From assembly GCA_900299285.1 (NCBI GenBank), contig OMJF01000154.1, forward strand, positions 4,306 to 68,305: a stretch of 64,000 nt of DNA, in the 5' to 3' direction. The translations under genes were made by a program, and so were the position numbers. Positions 1,188-19,300 of this stretch are shown here, piece by piece (position 1 is the first letter of the stretch; every line of letters begins with the position of its first letter). The notes under the pieces were generated by a model that was not told where the DNA came from, ran no database searches, and saw nothing but the letters and a program-made list of their open reading frames with translations. The stretch is from Anabaena sp. 54 (GTDB taxonomy: Bacteria > Cyanobacteriota > Cyanobacteriia > Cyanobacteriales > Nostocaceae).

Positions 1188-2453
1188 ATGACAGATGAAG
1201 TGATTAATGATTACCCCGAACCTATGACAAGCGCCCAACGCGCTTTTCAAGCTTCTCTGAAATTGGGAATTACCAAGGGGACAGATAGGAGTCGGGCTGT
1301 GTTAGCAATGGCACAAGCCATCGAACGGGATTTTGATGAAATTCTCGAAGCTAATACCTTGGATTTAGAAGCAAGTCGAGAAATGGCAGTTCCAGAATTA
1401 ATTTTGGACTGGTTGAGACTAACCCCCTCCAGGTTGGAGAATGCAGTTAAGATTCTGCAACGGTTGGGGGAATTATCTGATCCTTTGCGACGAGTCCGAA
1501 CCGCTGACTATCAGCAGGAAGACTCCCAAAGTTATACCCAGTTAATGCCTTTAGGGGTAATTGCTTTTATTTATGAAGCTTTCCCGGATTTAGGGGCAAT
1601 TGCGGCTGGTTTTTGTCTGAAAACTGGTAATAGTATTATTCTCAAAGGGAGTACAGAAGCTAGTCATTCTAATAAAGCGATCGCTAATGCACTACAAACA
1701 GCTATTACTAAAGTCGGTTTACCAGATGGTTGTGTGGAGTTAATCACTGCTGAACATGGTGCTTCTGTGCGAGATCTAGTAACTCAAGACCAGTATTTAA
1801 GTTTAGTGATTCCTTATGGGCGTACTAGTTTAATTCAACAAGTAGTTAGACAGGCAACTTGTCCAGTTCTCAAGTCGGCTATGGGTAATTGTTACCTGTA
1901 TTGGTCTGTTAATAGTAGCTTAGAAATGGTACGCTGGATGATTATAGATAGCCATGAAAGCGAACCAGATCCAGTAAATGCCATTGAAAAAGTTTTAATT
2001 CATCGTCAAGCTTTACCATCTTCTTTATCAGTGTTATGGAGTAGCTTAAAAGAAAAAGGTTTTGAACTTAAAGGAGATGCAGAATTAGTTGCGGCTTTTC
2101 CGCAGTTACAACTAGTAAAAGATCAAGAATGGGGGACACCTTATTTAACAAAAACAGTGACTTTTAAATTGGTAGATAGTTTAGAAAGTGCGATCGCTTG
2201 GATTAACCAATATAGTAGCAGTCATGCTGATAGTATTGTTACAGAATCTTATCAAGAAAGTCGCCAATTTGCATTAGGAGTAAATAGTGCTTCCACTTAC
2301 ATTAATGCTTCCCCTCGTTTTTCCCGTCATTCCTCACGAGGAGAAACTGTATTTTTAGGAATGTCTAATCAAAAAGGACATAGAAGGGGATTTATGAGTT
2401 TAGAAACTTTAACAACAGTGAAGCATATTATTCAAGGGAATGGGCGGTTTTAG
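1188..2453 (+). CDS. proA: gamma-glutamyl phosphate reductase-like protein (divergent ProA, catalytic Cys absent)
   Basis: PLGVIAFIYEAFP, LKTGNSIILKG, LVIPYGRTSLI, GNCYLY, HADSIVTE and YINASPRF match ProA; the CNA motif reads VNA. Confidence 0.8.
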   Translation: MTDEVINDYPEPMTSAQRAFQASLKLGITKGTDRSRAVLAMAQAIERDFDEILEANTLDLEASREMAVPELILDWLRLTPSRLENAVKILQRLGELSDPLRRVRTADYQQEDSQSYTQLMPLGVIAFIYEAFPDLGAIAAGFCLKTGNSIILKGSTEASHSNKAIANALQTAITKVGLPDGCVELITAEHGASVRDLVTQDQYLSLVIPYGRTSLIQQVVRQATCPVLKSAMGNCYLYWSVNSSLEMVRWMIIDSHESEPDPVNAIEKVLIHRQALPSSLSVLWSSLKEKGFELKGDAELVAAFPQLQLVKDQEWGTPYLTKTVTFKLVDSLESAIAWINQYSSSHADSIVTESYQESRQFALGVNSASTYINASPRFSRHSSRGETVFLGMSNQKGHRRGFMSLETLTTVKHIIQGNGRF

Positions 2454-2527
2454 GGAAAATATCTGAACAATAACAATATTTACCCATTTTTCCGTAAATC
2501 AAGGTAGGATATCATATAAGTACAAGT

Positions 2528-4501
2528 ATGCTACCTACCAAGATTATGAGCCTCTGCATCAATCCTAACTGCCTACAGCCCGAAAATCCAGACAATATCC
2601 TTTTTTGTCAAGCCTGTGGTTCAGAATTGATGATACAAGGACGTTATCGGGTTATAATTGAGTTAGGACGTGGTGGTTTTGGTGTTACCTACCAGATTAA
2701 TGAAATTCGTAAAAATCAAGCCAAAGTTCTCAAAGTCCTGATTAATAATCAACCAAAAGCAATAGAATTATTTAAACAAGAAGTCGCAGTTTTAAGTCAA
2801 CTAAATCATCCGGGTATTCCCAAAGTAGAATCAGATGCTTACTTTGTCTATTTTCCCCAGGAAAGCAGAAATCCAATTCATTGTTTTGTCATGGAAAAAA
2901 TTGAGGGAATAGACTTAGAAAAATATATGCAAAACCGTAATTTGCTTCCCATTGATCAAACCTTAGCAATACACTTACTGAAAGATTTAGTTACTATTTT
3001 AGAACAGGTCCATAATCAAAACTTTTTTCATCGAGATATCAAACCATCTAACATTATGCTGAGGGCTGAAAATGCTCAACTGGTATTAATTGATTTTGGC
3101 TCAGTTAGACAAGTTACAGAAACAGTCGTTAATCAACAAGGCAAAGTTACAGCAATAGTTTCAGCCGGTTTCACACCTCCAGAACAAATTAATAATAACG
3201 CTGTACCCCAATCTGATTTTTTTGCTTTAGGACGGACATTTGTTTATTTGCTGACAGCTAGAAAACCGCTTGATCCTGCAATATATGATTCTGATAATGA
3301 GACCCTAAATTGGCGTACTCATGCACCGCAAATATCACCTATATTAGCAGATTTATTAGATGATATGATGCAGCGTTTATATAAAGATCGTCCGCAAAAT
3401 ATTAAGCAGATATCTCAGCGGTTAGCAGCTATAGAAAAAGCTTTACAACAACCTCAAATAAAACCTCAACCACAAAAAAATAAATTTACTCGGCGGGTTT
3501 TTATAAAAACGGGTTTCATAATTGGAACATTTACTGTAGCAGTAGTAGGAAAAAATATATTTAAGAATCAAAATCATAAAATAACAACACCAAAAACTAC
3601 AACTTCTATAAATAGTTCCACCCCAGAACCTACAACATCTCCAAACTCAACTCCAGAAAATACCACATCTTTCACCAAGCTGAAAACCTTTGAATTTGAA
3701 GTTGTCACCACAGACGCAAAGGGAAATATCACTAACCGACGCAACGCAACAGCAAAATACTTCACAGAAGACTTAGGAAACGGTGTTTTCTTAGAAATGG
3801 TAGAAATACCAGGGGGAAAATTTTTGATGGGTTCACCGGAAAATGAAGCGAAAAGAAGTGATAATGAAAGTCCCCAACATCAAGTTACAGTTCCTAGTTT
3901 CTGGATAGGGAAATATGAATTGACACAGGCACAATATCAAGCTATTATAGGAAATAATCCTTCTTTCTTCAAAGGCGATAACCACCCAGTTGAACAAGTT
4001 AGCTGGAATGATGCAGTTACATTCTGTCAAAAGTTAAGCCAAAGGACAGGAAAAAACTATAGATTACCAAGTGAAGCCGAATGGGAGTATGCGTGTCGTG
4101 CGGGAACAACCACACCATTTTATTTTGGTGAAAGTATTACCCCAGAATTGGTAAACTATGATGGTAATCACGTCTACTCATCTGCACCAAAAGGACAATA
4201 TCGAGAACAAACCACAGATGTAGGAAATTTTCCTCCTAACGCTTTTGGTTTGTACGATATGCACGGAAATGTCTGGGAATGGTGTCAAGACAATTTCCAT
4301 GATCATTATACAAATGCGCCTCAAGATGGTACTGCTTGGATTAGTCAAAGCGGTAATGCTAAAATGCTACGTGGTGGGTCATGGGGTGACAATCCCGATA
4401 ATTGCCGTTCTGCTTATCGCAACACCCACTACTTCGACTACAACTTCGATCTTATCGGTTTTCGAGTTGTGTGTGGTGGTGGGGTCAGGGTTTTCTGGTA
4501 G
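2528..4501 (+). CDS. Ser/Thr protein kinase fused to C-terminal FGE-sulfatase (SUMF1/CLec-fold) domain
   Basis: Kinase motifs LGRGGFG, VLK, HRDIKPSN, DFG; TM/basic linker; FGE motifs RLPSEAEWEYACRAG, NAFGLYDMHGNVWEWC, LRGGSW, GFRVV. Confidence 0.93.
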   Translation: MLPTKIMSLCINPNCLQPENPDNILFCQACGSELMIQGRYRVIIELGRGGFGVTYQINEIRKNQAKVLKVLINNQPKAIELFKQEVAVLSQLNHPGIPKVESDAYFVYFPQESRNPIHCFVMEKIEGIDLEKYMQNRNLLPIDQTLAIHLLKDLVTILEQVHNQNFFHRDIKPSNIMLRAENAQLVLIDFGSVRQVTETVVNQQGKVTAIVSAGFTPPEQINNNAVPQSDFFALGRTFVYLLTARKPLDPAIYDSDNETLNWRTHAPQISPILADLLDDMMQRLYKDRPQNIKQISQRLAAIEKALQQPQIKPQPQKNKFTRRVFIKTGFIIGTFTVAVVGKNIFKNQNHKITTPKTTTSINSSTPEPTTSPNSTPENTTSFTKLKTFEFEVVTTDAKGNITNRRNATAKYFTEDLGNGVFLEMVEIPGGKFLMGSPENEAKRSDNESPQHQVTVPSFWIGKYELTQAQYQAIIGNNPSFFKGDNHPVEQVSWNDAVTFCQKLSQRTGKNYRLPSEAEWEYACRAGTTTPFYFGESITPELVNYDGNHVYSSAPKGQYREQTTDVGNFPPNAFGLYDMHGNVWEWCQDNFHDHYTNAPQDGTAWISQSGNAKMLRGGSWGDNPDNCRSAYRNTHYFDYNFDLIGFRVVCGGGVRVFW

Positions 4502-4615
4502 CCGGTACAAAAAGCTAACATAAGCTAACAATAGCCAACTTTTTTTCCTGGTTCATTCTAGAAGTGTCGGCACTATCTAGTCCACATAGCACACATTTTC
4601 CATTTTGTCTTAATC

Positions 4616-4647
4616 AGTCCGGTCACTAGGATTGAAGTAACCGGACT
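4616..4647. terminator. hairpin between convergent kinase-FGE and desB genes
   Basis: AGTCCGGT(C)ACT...AGT(A)ACCGGACT inverted repeat. Confidence 0.55.
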
Positions 4648-4707
4648 AATTTGTGAAAGCTTTAATTCAGCCCTTTATTCCCGGTTGGAGTCTGGAATTA
4701 ACTGATT

Positions 4708-5784
4708 TTACTTGACATTCTGATTTTTAGAAGTGTAGTAAACCTTACTTCCTGTATCGGGAACAAAATGACAACTAATAGCAGAATTCCATAAAGACTT
4801 CCAAATTGGTTCTTTTGATTCGTGAAAATACTCACCCATAATTGGTTTAATTGCCTTAGTAGCTTTCAACAAATTGTAGTGAGGCATATTTAAGAAAATG
4901 TGATGGGCAACATGAGTACCGATATCATGATGAATGTGGTTAAAAATACCATAATCTCTGTCAACACTAGAAATTGCCCCTTTCAGGAAAGTCCATTCTT
5001 CTCCACGATACCAGGGAACTCCCGGTTCAGTGTGGTGTAAAAAAGTCACCAAATCCAGCCAAATGATAAAGACAATGTAAGGTCCAGCGTAGTATTTTAA
5101 TAACCACATCCAACCATATTGATAGGTCAGAAAAACTAGTAAAGCTACCATACTCATCCAAAGCGTGGTACTAGTGATAATGTCCCATTTTTCAGACGGT
5201 TTAAACAGTGGACTGCTGGGAGAAAAGTGAGAACCTTCTTTACCGGGAGAACGCTTAAACAGATACACTGGATAAGCCAATAAGAACACATAAAAACGCC
5301 CTATTTTTTGTACTAAGGGCATCTCATTGTACTCAGATTCAGAGACAGGATACCAGCTTTCATCATTTTCCAAGCTGCCTGTATTTTTGTGGTGAGTTCT
5401 GTGACTAATTCTCCAACCATGATAAGGAACGAGAATGGGAGTATGGGAGAGATGACCAACCAGATCATTCAACCATTTATACTTAGAAAAAGATTGATGT
5501 CCACAGTCATGTCCAACTACAAATAAAGCCCAAAACATAGTTCCTTGCATTAACCAGAAAACCGGCCAAAAATACCAAGAATCTAGATAATTAGCCACTG
5601 CATATAGCAGACCAATAATTAGAACATCACGAAAGAAATAAGAGAGTGATTTAGTCACATTAGGCTGAAAACATTCAGCGGGAATAGCAGCTTTTAGATC
5701 TTGAAGAGTAAAGGGTAATTTTTCTTGACCTTCAAAAGATTCCGAACTAGGTTTTTGATGGAACTGGATTGTATCTAATTGCAC
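4708..5784 (-). CDS. desB: omega-3 (delta-15) acyl-lipid desaturase
   Basis: His boxes HDCGH, HRTHH, HVAHH; LFKRSP and DRDYG motifs; GTG start. Confidence 0.93.
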   Translation of the reverse strand: MQLDTIQFHQKPSSESFEGQEKLPFTLQDLKAAIPAECFQPNVTKSLSYFFRDVLIIGLLYAVANYLDSWYFWPVFWLMQGTMFWALFVVGHDCGHQSFSKYKWLNDLVGHLSHTPILVPYHGWRISHRTHHKNTGSLENDESWYPVSESEYNEMPLVQKIGRFYVFLLAYPVYLFKRSPGKEGSHFSPSSPLFKPSEKWDIITSTTLWMSMVALLVFLTYQYGWMWLLKYYAGPYIVFIIWLDLVTFLHHTEPGVPWYRGEEWTFLKGAISSVDRDYGIFNHIHHDIGTHVAHHIFLNMPHYNLLKATKAIKPIMGEYFHESKEPIWKSLWNSAISCHFVPDTGSKVYYTSKNQNVK

Positions 5785-5938
5785 TAGATTAATTGAGTGA
5801 TTGTAAATTAGAAATTAATCCAGAGGTTATATTTAGTTACCCCTGGAAGTTAGACTTGGGAATATTGGCTGAAAAAATTGGTGATGAAAGGAGAAGTAAT
5901 TAATTCATACGTCAGAGTTCATGCCCAATATTAATATT

Positions 5939-7000
5939 TTATGATCTTTCTGCACGATATTCATCAAAAGTGACATAACCAATATCAGTTTTATATAATT
6001 GACATTGATTAGTGATTTCCTTCATTAAATCCCAGGAGAACTTATATTCTTCATGGAGATAAGGACTCCAATTTTCCTTGATACTGCTGTAAGCCAACCT
6101 TAGATTATAGGAAGGAATTGCAGTAGAAATATGATGGGGAACATGAACATTAATATCATGACAAAGAATTTCTACCCAGCGAGGATAATCACAATGAATT
6201 GTGCCAAATAGCTGTGCTAAGGCTTCATTCCATTTGTCAGCAGTGCTAAAAGGAACATCTGGAAGAGTGTGGTGAACAATAGTAAAGGTACTCATCCAAA
6301 AATGGTAAACCATCCAGGGAATAAACCAGAATTTAATAAAGCCCCAAACACCAGTTGTAATAATTAAAGTTGGGAAAACAATAGCCGCAAATAAAGCTAC
6401 CACAGCCACAGAAAGTTTAACACTAGCTTGGTCTTTTTTTTGGAAATTGCGCCAATCAAAATGGACAACAGCCCAATGTCCAATAGAACCTACCCACCAA
6501 AGACGTTGACGTAGAAACAACTCAAAAGAGGACTGTCTATTTTTAGACCAACTTGTAAAAACTTCTGTTCTAATGGGATGCCAAGCGTTATCTTCATCTA
6601 ACTTGTTAGTATGTTTATGGTGATGATTATGTTTAATCCGCCAACTGTGAAAGGGGTAAATTAGGAACATCATGAAGAAATGCCCGACTAAATCATTTAC
6701 CCAGCGACGTTGTGCAAAGGAACGATGACCACAATCATGACCAATCACAAAAAAACCCGTTAAGGCCGTTCCTGTAAAAATCCAAGCTAGGGGTAAAAGA
6801 AACCAGGGGGAAACCGCTATAAAATAATAGCCTAGTGCAGCCATAGATAAACTGATAACTACAGTTGTCCATGCTTTGCGACTATTTTTTTGAAAACATT
6901 CCTTGGGGAGACTTTTGATAATATGTTTTAGTTTGATTTCGTCCTTACCCAGGTCTGTGGAGACCGTTATTTCCCGAATCTTAATAGTTGATGTAGTCAT
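5939..7000 (-). CDS. desA: delta-12 acyl-lipid desaturase
   Basis: His boxes HDCGH, HNHHH, HVPHH; likely start MTTSTIK at 7000 (ORF track extends to 7060). Confidence 0.93.
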
Positions 7001-8127: not shown

Positions 8128-9360
8128 ATGATGAACAGCTTTGAACAGCTGCGGGAAGCAGAACAGGCGCTATTAGAAATTTTTTCCGCTATTGACGCTC
8201 AGGTCAAGCATAATCTTAAAAGAGTATTAGATGCCTTTCGTGATCATCGAGTGGGAGCGCACCATTTTGCGGGCGTGAGTGGCTACGGACACGATGATTT
8301 AGGAAGAGAAACCTTAGATCAAGTTTTTGCCCAAGTAATGGGCGCTGAAGCTGCGGTGGTGCGAGTGCAGTTTGTTTCGGGAACTCATGCGATCGCTTGT
8401 GCGCTCTATGGTGTACTTCGTCCTGGTGATGAAATGTTAGCAGTGGTTGGTTCTCCCTACGATACATTGGAAGAGGTGATTGGCTTGAGGGGACAAGGCC
8501 AAGGCTCTCTTCTTGATTTTGGCATAAAATACCGCCAATTAGAACTAACTGATCAAGGAAAAATAGATTGGCAAAACTTAACCACTTGCATTACCGACAA
8601 CACAAAGTTAGTATTGATTCAACGCTCCTGCGGATATTCATGGCGGCCAAGCCTTTCTATTGCTGAAATCGAAAAAATTGTTCAGATAGTCAAACAGCAA
8701 AATCCCCACACCATTTGCTTTGTAGACAACTGCTACGGCGAATTTATAGAAACCCAAGAACCAACCCATATTGGTGCCGACCTCATAGCCGGGTCATTGA
8801 TCAAAAATCCTGGGGGTACAGTCGTGAGTGCTGGTGGTTACATAGCTGGTCGAGCCGAATTAGTAGAAGCAGCCGCTTGTAGACTGACAGCCCCTGGAAT
8901 TGGTAGCCAAGGGGGAGCGACCTTTGATCAAAACCGCCTCTTATTCCAAGGATTATTTTTAGCGCCGCAGATGGTAGGGGAAGCAATGAAAGGAACATAC
9001 CTGACGGGTTATGTATTTGACAAACTGGGTTATCCAGTCAACCCCCCACCACTAGCGCCCAGAGGAGACGTGATTCAGGCCATTAAACTTGGTTCAGCCA
9101 AAAAACTCATCGCCTTCTGCAAAGCCATACAGCAGCATTCACCCATAGGATCTTATCTAGACCCCATACCCGACGATATGCCAGGCTACGAAAGCCAAGT
9201 AGTCATGGCTGGAGGAACATTTATTGAAGGCAGTACCTTGGAACTATCGGCAGATGGACCATTGCGAGAACCTTATGTGGTTTATTGCCAGGGCGGTACA
9301 CATTGGACTCATGTATCTATAGCTTTACAAGCGGCTATTGAGGCAGTAGGGACTTTATGA
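8128..9360 (+). CDS. PLP-dependent methionine gamma-lyase / aluminium-resistance (YnbB-like) family protein
   Basis: GYGHDDLGRETLD, VSGTHAI, FVDNCYGEF, GSLIKNPGG, MAGGTFIEGST motifs. Confidence 0.88.
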   Translation: MMNSFEQLREAEQALLEIFSAIDAQVKHNLKRVLDAFRDHRVGAHHFAGVSGYGHDDLGRETLDQVFAQVMGAEAAVVRVQFVSGTHAIACALYGVLRPGDEMLAVVGSPYDTLEEVIGLRGQGQGSLLDFGIKYRQLELTDQGKIDWQNLTTCITDNTKLVLIQRSCGYSWRPSLSIAEIEKIVQIVKQQNPHTICFVDNCYGEFIETQEPTHIGADLIAGSLIKNPGGTVVSAGGYIAGRAELVEAAACRLTAPGIGSQGGATFDQNRLLFQGLFLAPQMVGEAMKGTYLTGYVFDKLGYPVNPPPLAPRGDVIQAIKLGSAKKLIAFCKAIQQHSPIGSYLDPIPDDMPGYESQVVMAGGTFIEGSTLELSADGPLREPYVVYCQGGTHWTHVSIALQAAIEAVGTL

Positions 9361-9373
9361 GGTAAGATTTTTG

Positions 9374-9400
9374 CACGCAGAGACGCAGAGGCGCAGAGAG
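9374..9400 (+). repeat. left arm of 27-bp inverted repeat (tandem CGCAGAG(G/A) units) flanking the GxxExxY gene
   Basis: CACGCAGAGACGCAGAGGCGCAGAGAG; 24/27 identical to the reverse complement of 9782-9808. Confidence 0.9.
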
Positions 9401-9778
9401 ATGATTGAGAATGAGATTTCGGGAGTTATTGTTGATGTGGCTTATAAGGTTCACAATACTTTGGGACCTGGTTTGTTGGAGTCGGTATATGAGACGGTGA
9501 TGGATGTTGAATTGAGAAGGCGAAAGTTGGAGGTGAGAAGACAGGTAATTATTCCCATCATCTATGATGGTGTGGTTTTGGAGGAAGGTTTTCGGGCTGA
9601 TTTGATAGTTGAAGACAAGGTGATTGTCGAACTCAAATCAGTGGAAAATCTCCATCCTGTACATAAAAAGCAGCTATTAACCTATCTACGTCTTGCTGAT
9701 AAAAAAGTCGGACTACTAATCAACTTTAACGTCCCACTCATCAAAGACGGTATTACACGCATAGTCAACAAACTCTAA
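9401..9778 (+). CDS. GxxExxY protein (PD-(D/E)XK_3 nuclease-like)
   Basis: GPGLLESVY motif, FRADLIVEDKVIVELKS, QLLTYL, GLLINF; ATG at 9401 directly after the repeat arm (ORF track starts at TTG 9371 inside the repeat). Confidence 0.92.
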   Translation: MIENEISGVIVDVAYKVHNTLGPGLLESVYETVMDVELRRRKLEVRRQVIIPIIYDGVVLEEGFRADLIVEDKVIVELKSVENLHPVHKKQLLTYLRLADKKVGLLINFNVPLIKDGITRIVNKL

Positions 9779-9781
9779 AAA

Positions 9782-9808
9782 CTCTCCGCGCCTCTGCGCC
9801 TCTGCGCG
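9782..9808 (-). repeat. right arm of 27-bp inverted repeat flanking the GxxExxY gene
   Basis: CTCTCCGCGCCTCTGCGCCTCTGCGCG, 3 nt after the stop codon. Confidence 0.9.
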
Positions 9809-9813
9809 AAACC

Positions 9814-11007
9814 TTATTCCGGTAATTTATACTGCCCCACTATCCGCTTCGCAAACTCTGGTACGTGCGCTGCTAATTTCTTTCCATGATTCCGCTTTAC
9901 ATATAGATAATTTCTCGCAAAGTGGGAATCTATGGAAAATCTCGCATATTCCAGTCCTTTGGGTCCGATTTTATCTATCACTACCCCCATTAATTTTGCA
10001 GCCCACATCGGTAAGGTAACGGCTTGATCATAAGCTGGTATACTTTGCTGTACTGCTGGTTTGCGGTTTCCTTGGGATATGACGGGTTGGGTATCCAATT
10101 GGTCTTTAACGAGTTCTAACATTTCTTTGCCTGTATCGTTTCTGACTACTATCCATTGCCATTTGTACGGTGCGCCCATATACCCGACGACTATATCGGC
10201 CAGGGAGTTGACGTAATCAAAGCAACTCATACAGGATGGGGCAAAGATGTCTTTAAGCACGTTTGTTTTTAAGCCAAAGAAGGGTACTGTCTCTTCTGAG
10301 CCGTCTTGGTGTTTGAAGTGAACTCGGAAGTCTTGCATAAATTCGTAACTGACAACTGTTTGCGGGGAACGGCTGGTGGTTTCTAGGAATTTTTGCAGTC
10401 CGGCGCGGGTAACGTTATCTACGCAGGGTGTTCCCAGTACGTAGAGTTTTTCTAGGCCGAGTTTTTTCTCGACGGCTCGTAATGCTTGAATTTGACAACC
10501 TACTCCAATCACTAATAACCGTTTCATTCCCGATTTTTCTATCTGTTCTAATACGGACAGGTTGGGGGATAGGGTAGGTTTATTGACTTTGGCGGCTAGT
10601 ATTTCTTCTGGAGTGCGGGCTATTATGGGCATGGGTTGAAAGCGATCTTCTTTGCTGTTTTGGACACAAACTACGCCTTCAACTAGTCCACGATTAAGCA
10701 TTTCTATGGCTATGCTGCTCACTATTCCTGTCCATTGCGCGCCTTCTATGGGTTGTTGTTTTCTCGCGGACATCATTTCTTGGTGTACACCAAAGTAGAG
10801 TTCGTTTTCGTCTTCTAGGTTGCGGGGACGGTTATGGGTGGTGGTTTCTAGTTCGTCTATTCTTTGGGTAATGAAGGCGCACGCTTCTTTAACGTAGTGG
10901 ATGTAGTAAGTGTCGCATAGTCCGCATTCGCTACATAGTTCTTTGGCGGGGCGCACGCTTCCGGGTTTGAGGGCTTTGGCTTTTTTGTGGGATTCTATGG
11001 ATGTCAT
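9814..11007 (-). CDS. bciB: ferredoxin-dependent 8-vinyl (divinyl chlorophyllide) reductase, FrhB/F420 hydrogenase beta family
   Basis: CSECGLCD Fe-S motif, AQWTGIVS, GVGCQ, GTPCVDN, CMSCFDY match the cyanobacterial Slr1923/BciB type. Confidence 0.85.
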   Translation of the reverse strand: MTSIESHKKAKALKPGSVRPAKELCSECGLCDTYYIHYVKEACAFITQRIDELETTTHNRPRNLEDENELYFGVHQEMMSARKQQPIEGAQWTGIVSSIAIEMLNRGLVEGVVCVQNSKEDRFQPMPIIARTPEEILAAKVNKPTLSPNLSVLEQIEKSGMKRLLVIGVGCQIQALRAVEKKLGLEKLYVLGTPCVDNVTRAGLQKFLETTSRSPQTVVSYEFMQDFRVHFKHQDGSEETVPFFGLKTNVLKDIFAPSCMSCFDYVNSLADIVVGYMGAPYKWQWIVVRNDTGKEMLELVKDQLDTQPVISQGNRKPAVQQSIPAYDQAVTLPMWAAKLMGVVIDKIGPKGLEYARFSIDSHFARNYLYVKRNHGKKLAAHVPEFAKRIVGQYKLPE

Positions 11008-11099
11008 CTATTTTGTTTATTTTTACTAAATATGGCTTTTATTACCTTACCGTTACAGGATGTGAAGTTGGCGGTTTGAGGTGAATAAGAGTTTTTTAT

Positions 11100-11259
11100 C
11101 GCGCAGAGACGCAGAGGCGCAAAGAAGAGCGCGGAAGGAGTTTTGATGGGTAGGTAAGACGTAGTTTTTATTAATAACCCTTCGGTTAATTTATAGAGGG
11201 TTTTTTATGTATTTATACCACACTTTTGATTTCTCTCTGCGACTCTGCGCCTCTGCGTG
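11100..11259. mobile_element. gene-less element bounded by the same CGCAGAG inverted repeats (MITE-like)
   Basis: Left arm CGCGCAGAGACGCAGAGGCGCAAAG from 11100; right arm CTCTCTGCGACTCTGCGCCTCTGCGTG at 11233-11259; ~105 bp non-coding interior. Confidence 0.65.
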
Positions 11260-11269
11260 AGACAAAAAA

Positions 11270-11377
11270 ATGATTACTGATGATGATTATCGTCTTGGTA
11301 TGATTTTCGATGGTCAAAGATTAATTTTTGAAAGAGTTTTACACCGTCAAGAAATTTATCGTTATTTTCCTAAATAG
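11270..11377 (+). pseudogene. 3' remnant of a RelE/ParE-family toxin gene
   Basis: Translates MITDDDYRLGMIFDGQRLIFERVLHRQEIYRYFPK*, resembling the RelE C-terminus (DYRIG...RVLHRxEIYRYFP); N-terminal two-thirds missing. Confidence 0.7.
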
Positions 11378-11457
11378 TGGTTTAAATATAAAAAGTACCG
11401 TAATTACAGAAAAATTCTTACAGCGCAAATCAACTCACAAACACATTTGATAACTTT

Positions 11458-11939
11458 ATGCGTAATATTCCAATTCAGCCTTTAGCCATGGGAATAAGTA
11501 TGATTTTACTTTCCCTATTCTCATCCTTTAGTGTCCAAGCACAAAAGGGAGGAAATAAAATTGAACTCAAAGTTTATAGTGAAAACGTGCAAAAAAAAGT
11601 TGTCCAGATAAAGTTATTGTCACGGAAATTCCCCAACCTTATCGAGAGGGAAGTTTTGCTACCGACGGTTCTGTGAATTTGAGTGAGTACGCAAATAATA
11701 TTTCTATCAGCACAAGTAATAGCTTTAGTACGACATGGGTAGGAACATTAAAACCGAAATATGCTCAATGCTTTGCTTCTGCTGGAAATAGTCGTTATCG
11801 GCTGCATTTTGTTAAGGGTAAAGTTTATTTTATGCTTGATTTAGCCGGCGGTTTTGATCCTAATAATTATCCTTTAATGGTTATCAAGCAGGGAATGAAA
11901 ATAGGTAATCCTGTGTGGACTTGGGGTGGAACTGATTAA
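11458..11939 (+). pseudogene. secreted hypothetical protein (~160 aa) split by a frameshift at an A8 tract
   Basis: Signal-peptide ORF 11458-11676 continues in the -1 frame (SCPDKVIVTEIPQPYREGSFATDGSVNLSEY...) into ORF 11673-11939; A8 run at 11591-11598. Confidence 0.75.
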
Positions 11940-12007
11940 AGAATAGTAAATCACTTCATTTAATCTGGACTGGATTTAAAATAAGGCTTACTCAAAACAG
12001 AAATAAA

Positions 12008-12035
12008 GTAGGGGTAATTCATGAATTACCCCTAC
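12008..12035. repeat. GTAG-type REP-like perfect palindrome
   Basis: GTAGGGGTAATTCATGAATTACCCCTAC (28 bp) between convergent genes. Confidence 0.85.
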
Positions 12036-12074
12036 CCAAGAATTAAATTTTTAGTCTTTTTAAATTGTCTTTAA

Positions 12075-12866
12075 TTATTTATTTTCTTGCATACTTCTGA
12101 CAATTTTTGTTACCATTTTTCTGGGTATAAAGCGAATACATTTTGCCATTAGTTTATTAACAAAACCAGGAATAATAATTGTTTTTCCCTGCATGAAACC
12201 ATCATAACCGATTTGGGCTACAGTTTCCGCATCCATCATTTTTTTGCGTTTTAATAGTTTAGAATCTGCCATTCCTGTTCTTTCATGAAATGCTGATGCT
12301 GTTGAACCTGGACAAAGAACAGTTACAGTTATACCTGTACCTTCTAATTCATTAGCAATAGCTTCTGAAAAAGATAAAATATAAGCCTTAGTAGCAAAAT
12401 AAACCGCCATTAATGGACCTGGTTGAAATGCAGCTGCAGAAGCAACATTAAGAATTTTACCATGACGTTGTTTAACCATTTCTCTAAGAAATAATTTGGT
12501 TAAATGGGTAAGACAAACCAAATTTACCTGCAACATTTCTAGTTCAGTATTGAGGTCGGTTTCATAAAATAATCCATGATTACCAAAACCTGCATTATTG
12601 ACTAATATATCAACTTTAATACCTACTTGTTGCAATTCTGTAAAAATTTCTTCGGGAGATGTGGATATAGATAGATCTTTAGTAATGGGTTGAACAAATA
12701 TTCCAAACTCTTCTGCAAGTTCAACAGCTATGATTTGCAGTTTTTCTCCTAACCTATCTACTAATACAAGATTGTAATTTTCATGAGCAAAAATCCGTGC
12801 AAACTGATAGCCAATACCACTAGCTGAACCAGTAATTAAAACAGTTTCCCGACATTTTATGTTCAT
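12075..12866 (-). CDS. short-chain dehydrogenase/reductase at the hetN position of the hgl cluster
   Basis: TGSASGIG, NNAG, YFATK motifs; directly downstream of hglB; lacks RGSGR, so not called hetN. Confidence 0.88.
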   Translation of the reverse strand: MNIKCRETVLITGSASGIGYQFARIFAHENYNLVLVDRLGEKLQIIAVELAEEFGIFVQPITKDLSISTSPEEIFTELQQVGIKVDILVNNAGFGNHGLFYETDLNTELEMLQVNLVCLTHLTKLFLREMVKQRHGKILNVASAAAFQPGPLMAVYFATKAYILSFSEAIANELEGTGITVTVLCPGSTASAFHERTGMADSKLLKRKKMMDAETVAQIGYDGFMQGKTIIIPGFVNKLMAKCIRFIPRKMVTKIVRSMQENK

Positions 12867-12924
12867 TTTTAAAAACGTAAATTGGCATTAATAAAATAGG
12901 CACAGTTTATCTGTGCCAAGAGCA

Positions 12925-14439
12925 TTAGACAAGAGTTAAAAAACCAGTTTGCACTAAATAGGATGTGTAAGTCATCAACAATTGAGAATCAATAGGAGGA
13001 CAAACAATTAAACTACCCTTTAATGCTTCTAGAGTTTTTTCACAACTAATAATTGGTCTTCTAGCTTGTAAATACAAATCGGGAATAGTGATTTGTTCAT
13101 CTGACCAGCGTTCTAACAAAAATGGACGCAAAGTATATAAAGGATTGTCTGGAGATGTGACATTATTAATTAATTCTGCTTGCCATTCTTGGTATGGAAT
13201 CATCTTTAATGAAAACCCAAAAGAACGCACCCAATCAACTAAAGATATTAAAGAAGCGGGTTGAGGATGTTGTAAATGGAAAGCTTTACCTACAGATGTT
13301 TTTTGTCGAGAAAGATAAACAACAGATTTGCTAACATAATCAACAGGAGACATATCTAACATATAATCTACATCGGGAAAAGAACCCATTTGTAGACAAC
13401 CTTTAATCATTAAATTGATGAAATCATGGGTATTACAAATTCCGGTTTTGCTATCTCCAGAAATTAAAGGTGGTCTGTAAATAGTAATAGGTAATCCTCG
13501 ACTACCAGCGATTTTTACTAACTTTTCTGCCACCCATTTAGTTTGAGAATAACCGAGAAAAATACCTTCCCAGTCATGAAAATCATCATCTTCTTTAACC
13601 AGTTTACCGGCATAAGCACTAGACTCAAAAACAGCAACACTAGAAACATAATGAAATGGCTTAACTTTGGTTTGACAAGCTAAACGTAAAACTTCCTGTG
13701 TACCCAAAACATTCGCTGTTTTTAGTGCTGAGTAAGGATAAACATAATTCAGTAAAGCTGCACTATGATAAATAGCATCAATATTAGCAGCTAGATTTTG
13801 AAATTGTTCTGCATTAATACCCAAATGTGGTTGTGATAAATCACCAATAATGGGGATAATACGGTGACTATATTTATCTTGCCAAATTCCATATTGTTGC
13901 AAATTATTTTCTAATTTGCTTTTCCCTTCTTCCACATTACTAGCACGCACTAAACAATAAAGAATTGCTTCACTAACTTCTAGTAATTCCTTGATAATGA
14001 AAGCACCTAAATAACCTGTTCCTCCCGTTAAAAAGATATTTTTGGGGTGAGAAATAAAAACGGTATTACCTACTGGTTGAATGGTGGGGTCTAGAACAGC
14101 TTCCGCAGCTAAATCTAGGAAAGGAGGAGCAAAATTAACAGAAAAATTTGCACCTAAATTGACATCTTTTACCTGGCAATTATCACTTGATTCCTCTGAT
14201 AAACGCTGGGAAAGAGCAGCAATATTAGGATAATGCCAAAGTAAAATAGGAGAGGGTTTAAAACCTAGTAATTCTTCTAATTTACTAATAATAATCATGG
14301 CTTGAGCAGAATCTAAACCATAATTTTCTAAGTTTTCGTGAACATCAATTTCTGCGGTTTCAACTCCAAGCACTTCCGCAAGATGAGAAACCAAAAATGC
14401 TTGAATACTTTCAGCAGTATAAGACTGTTTAAAATTCAT
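12925..14439 (-). CDS. hglB: heterocyst glycolipid synthase HglB/HetM (ACP + thioester reductase)
   Basis: [11 protein letters not shown]; reductase [24 protein letters not shown]. Confidence 0.9.
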
Positions 14440-14441
14440 TT

Positions 14442-16112
14442 TTACTTCTCCAATGTAGAGGAAACTGGTTGATATTGACTGTAATAAGAAGGCATTTGCA
14501 AACCCTGAATTTTCAAACTATGGGTACGATATAAAAATGCAGTTCCCTTCATAATTTGGTTAGCAACATCAACAACATGACGTTGATTAGGTTCTGATAA
14601 ATATGAACCACGCACCCAGTCATTAAAGCCACCCATAGCAGGTCCACACCAAATTTGATAATCAACTTCTCGACCTTTTTCACCAGTGCTAGACCAGCGG
14701 GAAGATAACCCTAAATACCATCTAAAAATTAAGGCCATTTTCAGCTTAGGATTATTAACAGCTTTACCCAATTTTTCAGGATTCTTTTGCGATAAATAAG
14801 CGGCTGTACCTTCCCAAACTTCGGCAATACTTTTACGAAAAATTTGTTTTTCTAACTTTTCTTTTTCCGCTTTGGGAATATGTTCAATAGAGTCGTAAGT
14901 GCGATATAATTCATACAGTTTTTGCGCTCGCATGGGGAACATTGTCCCCCGTTTGAGAACTTGTAATTTCACTCCCATTTCAAACATATCGGCTGCGGGA
15001 GCCATAATCATATCTGCCATTTCTGCTTGTGCTAATAACTTTTTAGTATGTTCACAAGCACCAGATTCAACACAAGATTGATTAATTGAACCAGTCACTA
15101 TATAAGCCGCACCCATTATGAAACCAGCTAAAGCTGATTCTGGTGTACCAATGCCTCCAGCGACTCCAATTCTAATAGGAACTGAGTAATTATATTGCGC
15201 TTGAATTTCATCTCTGAGGGCAATAATTGAAGGTAATAAACATACTAAAGGACGATTATCAGTGTGACCTCCAGAATCAGCTTCAACGGTAATATCATCA
15301 GCCATTGGTACTTGGCTGGCTAAATTTGCCTGTAGTTCGGTAATTAATCCTTGCTGAAGTAATTCTTTGATAATTCTCGCGGGTGCTGGTTGCAAAAACT
15401 TAGTTGCAACTTCTCGACGGGAAATTTTAGCAATGACCTTATTTCTAATATCAATTTGATTGGCAGCATTCAATCTTAACCCAGCAATTCGATAATAAAC
15501 AATATTAGGAGTTAAGTCTAAAAATGCAGATGCTTCTACTGTTCTGACACTATATTTTAGATATAAATCTACAGCGCGACGTTCAATGATTGGTTCATTG
15601 GGACTGTGAATTAAATTGAAAGCATAGGGTCCATTTGGTAAGGCTTGTTGAATAGAATTAATGGCAGATTCTAAACGTTCTGGAACTAAGCCACCAGCAC
15701 CAAAAGAGCTTAAAATCTTCTCTTTTCCTAATGCAATTACCATTTTTTCAGAAGCAATACCACCAGCCATTGCTCCTGTCATATAGGCGTATTTTACACC
15801 ATAAGCAGCAAGAAAACTGGAATCACCAAGTTGTTGTAAACGTAGAGGTGGTAGTGAGATTAAAAGTTCTGGTTGTCCAGATGAACTATTATCATTAGGT
15901 GTTAAATAACCATCATTGGTAACACCAATTCTCCCTGCTATTTTGATAATATGACAAGGTTGATCTAATGTTAATAGTTTATCTTTGATGGCATTTTTTT
16001 CAAAGCTAACACAATCTAATGAACCTTTCCAAATTTGGTTTTGATGATGATTCCAGCCAAAAAAACCAAGTCCATTATCATGTTGATTTCGTACCGTCTC
16101 TATTGTTTTCAC
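14442..16112 (-). CDS. hglA: PfaD-family enoyl reductase HglA
   Basis: [44 protein letters not shown]. Confidence 0.92.
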
Positions 16113-16164
16113 GGTAGTTATTCCTCAATTTATAAGCAAAGGATTTGAAATGAAGAATTTAGTT

Positions 16165-16190
16165 CACGCAGAGACGCAGAGGCACAGAGA
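16165..16190 (+). repeat. CGCAGAG-family repeat arm
   Basis: CACGCAGAGACGCAGAGGCACAGAGA, near-identical to 9374-9400. Confidence 0.8.
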
Positions 16191-16238
16191 AAGAGGTTGA
16201 TCTTTTTACGTCTAGGTGTAATTTTCAGCCTATTTCTG

Positions 16239-16339
16239 AATACAGTTCAGTTAAGCATTTTTTTATTCCCTCTGTGTCCTCTGTGGTATGGCTAACGCCA
16301 CGCTGCGCGAACGTCAAAAAAAGAGCTTTACACTTAACA
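16239..16339. mobile_element. AATAC(A/G)GTTCAGTTAAG-family MITE-like element carrying a 26-nt SDR-like insert
   Basis: Aligns with the reverse complement of 34048-34134 except for an extra segment at 16287-16312; right terminus degenerate. Confidence 0.6.
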
Positions 16340-16348
16340 CTAAGTGGA

Positions 16349-19300
16349 TTATTTCTCTTCGTTGAGTAGGTTTTGAGCGCAAGCTAATTGTAATTGGATA
16401 ATTTCGCTCATTTGTTGACTAAAATCCTGTCTTGCTGCTAAGAAATTTGTGTGCGTTTTAGTTAATTTGGCGGTGTTGTTACTGAGTTTTTTGTACTGAG
16501 AAATCTTTAAATCATTCATGCTAATTTTTTCAGTAGGTTCTTGGTTTATGTTTGGCTTTAAGATTTTTGTTGACTCAAAGAATTTTAGTTTCTTTGACAA
16601 TTCTAAACCGTTCTCCATGATAGTTTTCATGGATTTTTTTTCTGGTTTAGATTTAGGTTGGGGATAAATATCTGTGGGTGCTATTTTCTCTACTGTTTGT
16701 AAGGAATTGATGATTTTATCCTCATCGAGAGGATAAATTATTTGCTTTTGGTTATTAACAAAAATTTGGCAATTTTCTGCATTTAAAATTGCAGAAGTCA
16801 TGGAATTACCACCTAATGTAACTTTCCTGTGCGTTAATTTATTCTGTTTGTTATTGTCTGAGGATAAGTTATATAAAGGAGCTAAGTTCAATTTAACTTG
16901 ATGACTCAATAGTTTTGCTAATGCTTTAATTAGGGAACTATGATCATCTGTACCACGTCGGTTCAGGGATACGGTAATATGTTCTTGATTACCAAGATTT
17001 TTACTTATCCAACGCGAACAAATACCACCAGCACCAGCTTCAATAAAGATTTTTGCTCCGTCTGCATAAACACGATTAACTAAGCGAGGAAAGTCGAGTT
17101 GTTGACATAAACCTGTAGCAATATGATCAGCAATTGATTCACTTTCTAGGGAAATGGGTTGATATTGAGCAGCAGAATAAAATGTAACTCCGGGAATTTG
17201 TTGTGCTGGTAAGTTATTGAGTTTAAATAATTCTGGGTATTCTGACTGCATTGCTTGACAATGAATTACATGATCAAATGGTGCAGGAAAGGCATTACAA
17301 CCCAGTTTTTTAATTACTCGTTCACAAGCTGCTGGTTCACCGGCAATTAATACTTCTTCTGATGTATTAATTTGGGTTAAATAAACGCGATTTTCGCTTT
17401 TTAAACATTCTCTTACCTGTGCAGGACTTGCTATCAGCACATAGTTACTCCACAAATTATTATAGGAATTTGTAGAATTTTTTGGTAGTCCCCAATACTC
17501 ACAGACAGCGTTTTTTTGACCTGATAATCTATCACCAAATAAGTTAGAAGAATTAAAAGTATTACTTCCTTGATAGAAGTTACTCCACACTCCTTGAGCA
17601 ACCATCATACTGGTTTCTCCCAAACTATAACCAAAGATATATTTGGGTTTAATTTGAAAGTCGTCGCTGATAATTGTGGTCATAAGTCTGGTAAATAGCA
17701 TTTCTGCTTCAAACATAGCTAAAGAATCAGCTAACAATTGTTTTTCTAATGTTTCTAATTCTCTGGTAGATAATTTACCTAAACTTCTGGGAAATACTAA
17801 TTTTTCTACATCAGCAGCGCGTTTGTAAAGACTTTTGACAATTACATCATCAAAAGCTTTAGGAAATAGTCGGAATAATGTCCGACCAATACCTAAATAA
17901 GAGTTAACTGCTGCGGGGTAAATAAAGGCAATTTCTTGATGTTTTCCTAATGGTTTGGGTGTAAAATAACTACCTATGGGAGTTTGCCAATCTTTACCAT
18001 TTTCAAAGGCATTAGTTACACCTTTTTTTGCAGAATTAATTTCTTTAATTAATTCTTTTTGGTTATGTCCAGTAATTGATAATGTGTATTTAGGATCAGA
18101 ATTTTGCTGAAATTTAAGAAAGTTCTGAGTAGCTGTATTTTTGAGATCATCTGTATTTTCAATTGTTGTCTGTAGATGATCTAATGCTGCTAATAAACTA
18201 GATTGATCATTAGCAACTAGGGGGAAAATATGAAAAGATTTGGACTCTAAATAACGACTTTGGGGTTCTGGTTGATTGGTTTCTTCTGATAAGATGATAT
18301 GAGCAAAAGAACCATCACAACCAATACTATTAATGGCGGAAATTCTGCATTTGACTTCTTTTTGTAAAAACCAGGGTCGGGACTCGGTAGCAACATAGAA
18401 AGGACTACCTTCCCATACTTGCGGTGTTTTCACTCCAGACCAGTTGGGTGTTGCAGGTATATATTTATAATACAAACTCAGTGCAGTTTTAATTAAACTA
18501 GCAATTCCTGAAGCCACGAAGGTATGACCAATATTAGATTTAACGCTACCTATAGCGCAGTGTAAACCATCTCCTACGGAGGGATAAGCTTGGAGAATAC
18601 CATTAATTTCGGCTTCGTCTTCTGCGGGAATACCACTAGCGCAGACTTCTAAATAGTTCACTTCTTGAGGTTGGATACCTGCTTGTTGAAATGCTTGTTT
18701 GCAGACTTGAGTAATGGTGGTATCATTTACAGCCATAGAGGCAGATTGACCAATACTAACAGCATCAATTACTGCATAGATGCGTTCTTGGTTTTGCAAT
18801 GCGACATCATGACGTTTAAGAACTACCGCACCCGCACCTTCTCCTACATTCCAACCGTCGGCTTTTTCGTCAAAACTTAAAGTATTTACTCCTATATTAA
18901 TTTTGCCAAATTGACTTCGCAATAAGACGTTTTCTACCCCACCTGCTAAGTCAACAGCACCCACAATTACAGCATCTACTTCATTAGTATCTAACAGCAT
19001 TTGTGCTAATTCTAAAGCTTTAAAAGCGGCTGTTTCTACGGCACTAATTGTAAAAGATGGACCAGAAAAATTCCATAAAGAGGAAATGCGACTAGCCATA
19101 ATATTGGTAACGTAACTGAGATATTCACTAAGTTCAACTTGATTGTGAATACTATCTTGAACAATACTTTCTAATTGATGAATTTTTTCTGGTGATAAGG
19201 CGATTTCGGCACTATTTAAACCATCTTTAATTTGCCAGGATGAATTCCATCTTTGCTGTAATTGGTGCACAGATAATTCTGTATCTGCTGCAATAATTAC

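Follow-up and report, generated by a model that had tools for sequence, protein, structure and literature searches.

A GxxExxY nuclease gene nested in an octamer hairpin of Anabaena sp. 54: possible member of a REPIN/RAYT-like repeat partnership

The REP/REPIN-RAYT systems combine repetitive extragenic palindromes (REP) with REP-associated tyrosine transposases (RAYT) (PMC3116915, PMC5581495, PMC3733652). For another protein family, GxxExxY (PF13366), the function is listed as unknown (PMC3424549). Here we describe a gene of the latter family in Anabaena sp. 54, found on a stretch of 64,000 nucleotides (nt) that is called the window below (contig OMJF01000154.1 of assembly GCA_900299285.1, positions 4,306 to 68,305 of the forward strand). 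The gene fills the loop of a hairpin with arms of three octamers each, and from the homologous loci it appears that GxxExxY family members are almost always nested in this one specific hairpin repeat. Our tentative reading, which we hold to be plausible though somewhat short of probable, is that the locus is a resident member of a widespread nuclease-plus-hairpin partnership, REPIN/RAYT-like in its organisation. Since the genes are nested in the hairpin and the repeat variant matches the protein clade, the octamer hairpin becomes a concrete candidate substrate for the GxxExxY family. The hairpins also form a dispersed repeat family with a sequence shared across phyla that is undescribed in the searchable literature: our literature search returned no description of the nuclease-in-hairpin arrangement or of the arm sequences, and database comments or non-indexed papers may hold one.

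The cassette and its two neighbours are made up as follows.

9374-9400, plus strand: left arm (CACGCAGAGACGCAGAGGCGCAGAGAG), consisting of a clamp CA, the octamers CGCAGAGA, CGCAGAGG and CGCAGAGA, and a final G; its last base lies directly before the ATG at 9401
9401-9778, plus strand: GxxExxY gene of 125 amino acids (aa), a minimal PD-(D/E)XK nuclease according to PF13366 and TIGR04256 profile matches; stop codon TAA at 9776-9778
9782-9808, minus strand: right arm (CTCTCCGCGCCTCTGCGCCTCTGCGCG), an inverted copy of the left arm with three units, in which CGCAGAG is read on the minus strand; it begins 3 nt past the GxxExxY stop codon
8128-9360, plus strand: upstream neighbour, a gene of the Met_gamma_lyase family (ynbB-like), by profile match
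9814-11007, minus strand: downstream neighbour, an FrhB-type gene, homologues of which some sources name 3,8-divinyl protochlorophyllide 8-vinyl reductase, bciB; 5 nt separate the end of the right arm from its stop codon

The Met_gamma_lyase-family gene and the FrhB-type gene are thus convergent, with the cassette between them. The left arm is identical to the reverse complement of the right arm at 24 of 27 positions, and each of the three mismatches sets an A on the left against a C on the right, which on the minus strand makes a G-T or G-U pair. A repeat search of the window recovers the arm pair with a perfect core of 15 nt. The two-unit pattern CGCAGAGRCGCAGAG, allowing up to two mismatches, has 10 matches in the window where 0.03 are expected by chance; CGCAGAG alone has 13 against 1.9 expected, and 12 of the 13 are confined to three sites. 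All of this anatomy, from the spacing of the arms and their pairing to the CGCAGAG units, the minus-strand wobble pairs and the convergent neighbours, had been put forward in a preliminary description of the locus, and it was confirmed on the sequence. A TTG start at 9371, which the list of open reading frames (ORFs) places inside the arm, was rejected, since the orthologues align from the ATG at 9401. An Rfam scan of positions 9000-17000, with expectation values (E) up to 1, gave nothing relevant; the cassette lies between protein-coding genes.

The assignment of the protein to GxxExxY and the PD-(D/E)XK_3 family, also made in the preliminary description, is borne out by both profiles: PF13366 (PDDEXK_3) matches with E 5e-43 and 146.6 bits against a cut-off of 22, over profile positions 2-117 of 117, and TIGR04256 (GxxExxY) with E 2e-44 and 150.6 bits against a curated cut-off of 35. 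In an alignment of 35 homologues the GxxExxY motif (G24-E27-Y30) and the catalytic-type residues D67, E77 and K79 are invariant. The AlphaFold2 model has an alpha-beta core with a predicted local distance difference test score (pLDDT) of 89, and its best Foldseek matches, Cas4 SSO0001 and lambda exonuclease, are both weak (template modelling score, TM, 0.4-0.5). No relative was found by a sequence search of the PDB, and the PADLOC and PHROGs profile searches returned just weak Cas4-like matches. The profile searches gave no transposase family match; the family matches were to PD-(D/E)XK only. The family is very large, with 20,775 cluster representatives at 50% identity (E up to 0.001). Some members (P0241-P0244, P0250 and others) are ~275-295 aa long and carry two tandem GxxExxY domains, and these fused forms hint that the single-domain protein may work as a dimer.

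The association of gene and arms was followed through a scan of one genome per GTDB species, which yielded more than 554 relatives; the best 80 of these (54-98% identity) were used for the loci. Their hosts belong to about 12 phyla overall, among them the Cyanobacteria, Acidobacteriota, Chloroflexota, Planctomycetota, Verrucomicrobiota, Bacteroidota, Nitrospirota, Desulfobacterota, Ignavibacteria, Armatimonadota and Proteobacteria. An arm was defined as two units C[GA]CN[AG]AG spaced 1-3 nt apart, and a locus was counted as armed on both sides when each side held at least two octamer units. By this measure 65 of 78 loci are armed on both sides, while 11 are armed on one side only and 2 lack arms altogether; of 619 random placements just 1 qualifies, so that the link to be looked for according to the preliminary description, an enrichment of flanking inverted repeats at GxxExxY loci, is indeed present. 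Likewise, the best ungapped inverted repeat around the gene scores at least 14 in 38 of 79 loci; random placements of the same geometry gave 0 of 780, and other ORFs in these loci 2 of 1072. In 842 kb of sequence there are 236 occurrences of the arm motif, and 6 once the sequence is shuffled. When ORFs of 70-260 aa with arms within 90 nt on both sides were counted across 2.6 Mb, 40 of the 54 arm-bracketed ORFs were GxxExxY genes and no second family recurred. The link between gene and arms extends over the entire protein subfamily.

Which unit variant a locus has goes with the protein clade and not with the host phylum, as judged from clustering by identity with the unweighted pair group method with arithmetic mean. 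The clade 5 proteins, from Verrucomicrobiota, Chloroflexota, Ignavibacteria and Desulfobacterota, have CGCCAAG or CAC-type units, whereas the clade 3 proteins of those same phyla, e.g. in Verrucomicrobia and Chloroflexi, have CGCAAAG units. Distant, plasmid-borne members use yet other units, CACAGAG(GA) in Bacteroides and Bernardetia and CGCGAAG in Sphingomonas, and a distant member in Treponema is flanked by a different inverted repeat. It is barely credible that the gene merely landed beside ordinary genome-wide repeats with no functional link. Such a coincidence would agree with the presence of the same repeats elsewhere in the window without the gene, but not with arms on both sides of the gene in most loci of about 12 phyla, nor with the in-register covariation of these arms.

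Several individual loci deserve mention. On a chromid of Sphingomonas parapaucimobilis (L334, 1471-1899) a CGCGAAG-armed GxxExxY gene lies between fabD and fabG in a fatty-acid synthesis operon; the ORF exceeds the usual length by 17 codons and seems to run through the expected position of the right arm. Distant members (37-44% identity) from Prevotella nigrescens (L337) and Fusobacteria bacterium ZRK30 (L335) are flanked by direct repeats of ~50-60 nt in place of inverted arms, which in Prevotella contain three ACAAATC-type units. Three same-strand arms with regular spacing (52 and 44 nt) follow the 3' end of the gene in L043 (6580-6706) and L076 (4879-4989), an array-like rather than a hairpin arrangement. 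As to other cargo in the bacterial flanks, the sole two candidate filled hairpins, in L035 and L042, proved to be chance pairings. Two arms of L035 (1696-1719 and 2668-2682), from a metagenome-assembled genome (MAG) of Thermoflexales, lie inside an ORF of 1478 aa (1346-5782); either a coding region tolerates hairpin arms in frame here, or this ORF is a false call.

Gene-bearing and gene-less hairpins share one design. A complementary clamp of 4-6 base pairs (bp), which may be CTCA/TGAG, CTCG/CGAG, TTGA/TCAA or another variant, is followed by three octamers CGCARAGN and often by an A-rich inner end, giving a stem of ~30 bp. In the usual layout three units stand 5' on the gene strand and three 3' on the opposite strand, and exactly three units are found in 164 of the 230 arms of the homologue loci. 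The arms are in-register inverted copies of each other, to the extent that unit-specific variants are mirrored in the partner arm, e.g. a CGCTAAG middle unit in L038 and an AAG/GAG/AAG pattern in the Flavobacterium loci. In 19 non-redundant loci, selected for a match to the unit motif in both arms (a motif that leaves the covarying positions free), 85% of the cells are paired, and sliding the partner by 1-3 columns lowers this to 37-56%; compensatory changes, with both sides altered, occur in 20 of 33 pairs, and the observed values are reached by none of 500 shuffles. The least constrained arm positions are unit position 4 and the spacer base.

At its own junction the cassette is an ancient, vertically inherited resident under purifying selection. 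With its arms it occupies the same gene junction in Dolichospermum circinale, Aphanizomenon flos-aquae, Nostoc linckia, Anabaena minutissima, Nostoc sp. WHI, Komarekiella, Calothrix NIES-2100, Cylindrospermum NIES-4074, Calothrix MO_167.B12 and two MAGs, and the left arm is kept at the orthologous site in 10 Nostocales loci. The orthologous proteins are 82-98% identical, in parallel with the neighbouring genes, and the ratio of non-synonymous to synonymous substitution rates (dN/dS) is ~0.11. The conserved junction, the neighbour-like identity and the low dN/dS together mark it as an old, selected gene passed on vertically and not as a recent insertion. In the relatives compared the gene is therefore syntenically fixed with the repeats, and not without them. 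Neither of the two findings that the preliminary description named as refuting its idea was made.

That arms and gene form a discrete unit of DNA on the evolutionary time scale is shown by three lineages. Cylindrospermum stagnale PCC 7417 has lost the cassette by deletion; its two flanking genes are 37 nt apart, with a remnant TCACGCA-AGTGTCCTC-CTCTGCGT that consists of the outer arm ends only; its congener NIES-4074 retains the cassette. A second case is an allele swap between Nostoc linckia FACHB-104 and Calothrix NIES-2100. The flanks of these two have synonymous distances (dS) of 0.44 (ynbB-like) and 0.35 (bciB) at 90-93% nucleotide identity, whereas the cassettes have a dS of 1.18, a non-synonymous distance of 0.19 and 73% nucleotide identity. 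Every arm unit is changed in NIES-2100 relative to FACHB-104, from CGCAGAG to CGCAAAG, and on both sides the divergence starts just inside the clamp. Finally, Nostoc sp. CENA543 has the gene at the same junction in inverted orientation with respect to the flanks, downstream of bciB, with the arms in place. The breakpoints of both the C. stagnale deletion and the NIES-2100 allele swap fall in the arms.

Three further details of these loci may be added. The 24-nt remnant TCACGCAAGTGTCCTCCTCTGCGT in C. stagnale (L086, 4201-4237) resembles the reverse complement of ACGCAGAGGAGGACACTTGC (L009, ~5926-5945), which in a related MAG precedes the left arm, a sign that another small repeat may be nested at the site. 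In L007/L025 the alignment columns 201-245 form an identical tract of ~44 nt over the GxxExxY motif region while the alleles are 73% identical elsewhere, and this mosaic pattern suggests gene conversion. The dS of the GxxExxY gene (window 9401-9775 against L006-L011) is 0.7-0.9, lower than in the adjacent ynbB-like gene (1.2-1.6) and bciB (>2) for the same genome pairs; relative to D. circinale it is 0.035 compared with 0.14-0.22. Such low values could reflect constraint at the nucleotide level or an occasional exchange of alleles between lineages.

The proposal of an autonomous mini mobile element, made in the preliminary description, thus holds in so far as arms and gene have been deleted, replaced and inverted as one unit; recent or active transposition at this locus is not supported. 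One explanation of this kind is a classical autonomous transposon with terminal inverted repeats (TIRs), in which the arms are the TIRs and GxxExxY is the transposase of a currently mobile insertion sequence of 435 bp. Inverted repeats around a single nuclease ORF, together with short gene-less derivatives reminiscent of miniature inverted-repeat transposable elements (MITEs), are what such an element would display. We nevertheless judge it very unlikely, given that the cassette sits at one junction across Nostocales genera, that the few hairpin flanks inspected by eye have no target-site duplication or direct repeats outside the clamps, that the profile searches gave no transposase match, and that the loops of gene-less hairpins, as far as inspected, have no sequence in common with the gene ends. 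Moreover, the gene turned up on very few plasmids and in no phage record, and the population contigs of lake metagenomes are colinear, with no empty or excised form of the cassette; apparent skip joints in these contigs were rejected as evidence of excision, as they belong to other hairpin copies. For this locus an active TIR transposon is largely refuted, and the coincidence discussed above is effectively excluded.

Hairpins of the same family are also found without the gene, beginning with the window itself.

11100-11259, no strand: gene-less hairpin upstream of bciB, with arms at 11102-11124 (plus) and 11235-11257 (minus) and a non-coding loop of 110 nt
16165-16290, no strand: gene-less hairpin with left arm 16167-16189 and right arm 16270-16285, the latter shorter and diverged (CTCTGTG units), and a loop of ~80 nt

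The first of these is conserved in D. circinale AWQC310F and decayed in Aphanizomenon. Close to it, the stretch 11380-11960 of the window, with two small ORFs of 72 and 88 aa (11458-11939), exceeds its counterpart in D. circinale AWQC310F by ~530 nt; in that strain just fragments of it are left between bciB and a short-chain dehydrogenase gene.

Outside the window such hairpins are numerous. A scan of metagenome contigs with a three-unit pattern gave 120 loci (636 kb), 3 of which have a GxxExxY gene: a frameshifted copy exactly between two arms (L217), an intact copy with hairpins on its flanks (L263) and another copy with a frameshift (L325). Nearly all remaining arms form short hairpins or non-coding hairpins with long loops, the long loops that were checked being mostly non-coding, and in this unbiased sample gene-less hairpins outnumber filled ones by ~40:1. 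The depth of the arm sequence in the metagenome contigs is 5-15x that of the flanks. With the same pattern IMG/VR yielded 120 loci (1.1 Mb), which have hundreds of arms between them but not a single GxxExxY gene; most of these arms are short hairpins between phage genes, and a few bracket small phage ORFs, which apart from one DUF5131 have no family assignment. Tandem arrays of 9-15 uninterrupted octamer units occur in four of the IMG/VR loci (L118 6845-6963, L153 5-75, L160 10392-10486 and L208 11118-11212); two of the four lie at the very end of a contig and could be terminal repeats or assembly breaks. Among 72,556 plasmids the CGCAGAG-type arm was found on those of Nostocales, Sphingomonadaceae and Thiodictyon only and the CGCAAAG-type arm on one Nostocales plasmid, while none of 5,426 E. 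coli genomes and none of 50,697 GenBank phage records has the CGCAGAG-type arm. The gene occurs on 7 of the 72,556 plasmids and was not found in the phage records. The taxonomic ranges of arms and gene overlap. The large excess of gene-less copies makes the hairpin a dispersed repeat in its own right, with GxxExxY as its one recurrent cargo.

The same excess lends itself to another explanation, namely that the hairpins spread independently, through another enzyme or a host function, and that GxxExxY is a free-standing homing-type parasite which targets the loop or centre of a hairpin and copies itself into empty hairpins by break repair, so that the arms are its target and not its product. PD-(D/E)XK homing endonucleases do exist (I-Ssp6803I). 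A homing gene would occupy exactly the loop of a hairpin that is otherwise frequent in empty form, hairpins would be expected in contigs and phages that lack GxxExxY, and a divergent allele could replace the cassette at the same hairpin, as it has done. The frameshifted copies inside or beside arms (L217, L325) are likewise expected of decaying homing genes. Homing genes usually decay after fixation, however, whereas this one has been retained at a single site across an order with a dN/dS of ~0.1. Furthermore, no intact empty hairpin came to light at any orthologous site: the one site that lacks the gene, in C. stagnale, is a deletion footprint, and N. punctiforme, Fischerella and Mastigocladus, which have a different synteny at bciB, are uninformative on empty sites. 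The tracking of the protein clade by the unit type fits a homing gene and the proposed partnership equally. We consider a homing-type parasite improbable, although it is a serious rival.

The other serious rival, to which we attach a similarly low probability, places the role of the arms at the level of RNA. Here the ~27-bp double-stranded stem would be cleaved by RNase III or would hide the ribosome-binding site, so that the gene is insulated from the mRNA of the host operon or processed out of it and expressed at a low level. Several aspects of the expression of the gene are in line with this. The upstream gene is co-directional in 53 of 68 loci, and the gene can be found inside operons, as in the fabD-GxxExxY-fabG arrangement of Sphingomonas. 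Assembled metatranscriptome contigs span the 3' end of the ynbB-like gene, the left arm and the GxxExxY gene, which indicates co-transcription; they do not show transcript ends. A consensus scan found no promoter-like or terminator-like site flanking the gene, and an intrinsic terminator at the arms is not supported, as these are 381 nt apart and no T run follows. The sole Shine-Dalgarno-like sequence upstream of the gene, GAGAG, is the inner end of the left arm, and several orthologues have a Shine-Dalgarno-like GGAG at that place. In the minimum-free-energy fold of the 459-nt RNA the arms form the closing stem (z = -6), and their covariation is also what a paired RNA would require.

A stem selected in RNA, on the other hand, is expected to leave a strand bias, and none was seen. 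Sense-strand mismatches show no G-U excess (28 A-C against 19 G-T/G-U), the duplex energies do not favour the sense over the antisense strand (20 against 21 for filled hairpins, 34 against 27 for short ones), and the A/T orientation of the loops relative to transcription is balanced (43 against 33); none of these differences is significant. In addition, cleavage by RNase III does not call for a conserved octamer, whereas the unit is kept from phylum to phylum and varies with the protein clade, and the breakpoints of DNA rearrangements coincide with the arms. The cross-phylum conservation of the octamer, the breakpoints and the null strand tests favour a role of the arms at the level of DNA, or at least their sequence recognition by a specific factor. 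With the suggestion in the preliminary description that the arms loop the gene out of RNA or single-stranded DNA, the RNA fold closed by the arms agrees, whereas the strand bias expected of selection on RNA is lacking.

How the proposed partnership of nuclease and hairpin might work can be outlined as follows. The nuclease would recognise the octamer hairpin, or a cruciform formed by it, both in its own arms and in the gene-less copies, and would cut near the base of the stem. Such cutting would sustain or multiply the copies without a gene in trans, in the way that RAYT does for REP/REPINs, and would turn arms and gene into a discrete cassette that host repair can delete, replace or flip. The gene itself has no recognisable promoter of its own and is read from the transcript of the upstream gene, and with the ribosome-binding region in the inner end of the left arm, arm pairing in the messenger RNA could also limit its expression. 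The central step, that the GxxExxY protein binds or cuts the arms and thereby drives the spread of the hairpins, is one that we infer. In its most far-reaching form, the proposal describes a self-perpetuating replicator that crosses phyla: a nuclease of 125 aa that reads a hairpin code of 3 x 8 nt and spreads hundreds of gene-less hairpins in trans, phages included. It would at the same time amount to a convergent equivalent of REPIN-RAYT that relies on a hydrolytic nuclease instead of an HUH transposase, with a repeat conserved from Cyanobacteria to Acidobacteria, Planctomycetes, Bacteroidota and Chloroflexi. We regard this extended form, taken as a whole, as doubtful.

A number of observations weigh against the partnership. 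The 1.1 Mb of phage-like sequence and most of the hairpin-bearing metagenome contigs have no GxxExxY gene nearby, so that action in trans must be assumed; phage-like contigs with hairpins and without the gene are compatible with such action. The lack of target-site duplications in the flanks inspected was mentioned above, and no new hairpin insertion was seen between close strains, where the one hairpin concerned (11100-11259) is either conserved or decaying. In the distant members of Prevotella and Fusobacteria the flanking repeats are direct, not inverted. A hydrolytic PD-(D/E)XK nuclease is unable to join DNA, and any paste step would therefore have to come from host repair. Lastly, ordinary slippage or homologous recombination at inverted repeats of 27 bp can by itself give deletion, inversion and allele replacement. 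Whatever drives them, the hairpins have a practical bearing on the annotation of intergenic repeats, on assembly breaks and on the linkage of phages to hosts through shared hairpins.

The locus can now be set beside the known systems that it calls to mind. In the model, the catalytic fold and residues appear to be those of minimal PD-(D/E)XK nucleases such as Cas4/RecB and of homing endonucleases of the I-Ssp6803I type; relative to Cas4/RecB, however, there is no Fe-S cluster module and no CRISPR context, and the structural similarity is weak (TM 0.4-0.5). The Correia/NEMIS elements and other MITEs processed by RNase III are also dispersed between genes, have inverted-repeat ends and form long hairpins in transcripts. 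They have no ORF, are bounded by target-site duplications and are restricted to particular species, whereas the present hairpins have a nuclease gene as recurrent cargo and a unit sequence common to several phyla. Closer in size and layout are the ORF-bearing intervening sequences of the 23S rRNA in Leptospira and Coxiella (PMC4990558), in which inverted repeats on either side of an ORF of ~120 aa pair into a stem within the transcript of the host, and which encode a multi-copy protein family of unknown function from overlapping phyla. Their S23p protein is a four-helix bundle, though, while the present one is a PD-(D/E)XK protein encoded outside the rRNA, and its arms show no strand bias of the kind that selection on RNA would leave.

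The IS200/IS605 elements share with the cassette their very small size, a single small nuclease ORF, hairpin-forming ends, the lack of a conventional DDE transposase and a largely quiescent state. Their ends are two different sub-terminal hairpins, their enzyme is of the HUH Y1 type and they occur as identical multi-copy insertions, in contrast to the complementary arms of the present cassette and its synteny across an order.

It is the REP/REPIN-RAYT systems that the locus recalls in most of its organisation, and the analogy with them drawn in the preliminary description can be kept in part. In both, a single small nuclease-type gene lies between inverted copies of a hairpin repeat that also occurs many times without a gene, frequently as inverted doublets; the gene is chromosomal, vertically inherited and under purifying selection; each protein clade has its own repeat variant; and the repeats lie mostly between co-directional or convergent genes. 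The analogy fails for the enzyme and the repeat. The RAYT enzyme is an HUH/Y1 (IS200-like) transposase and the REP stem measures 5-13 bp and carries a GTAG or CGTC tag (PMC3733652), whereas we find a PD-(D/E)XK nuclease and an untagged stem of ~30 bp built of three tandem octamers. Here, moreover, the gene lies inside one hairpin, the arms of which form a single long-range stem, and the repeat sequence is nearly identical across phyla and in phage contigs. With such an enzyme and a 3 x 8 stem the locus is not a member of REP/RAYT, and the resemblance is one of organisation only. If the nuclease acts on the hairpins, they would together constitute a second, mechanistically independent symbiosis of the REP/RAYT type between a genome-resident repeat and an enzyme.

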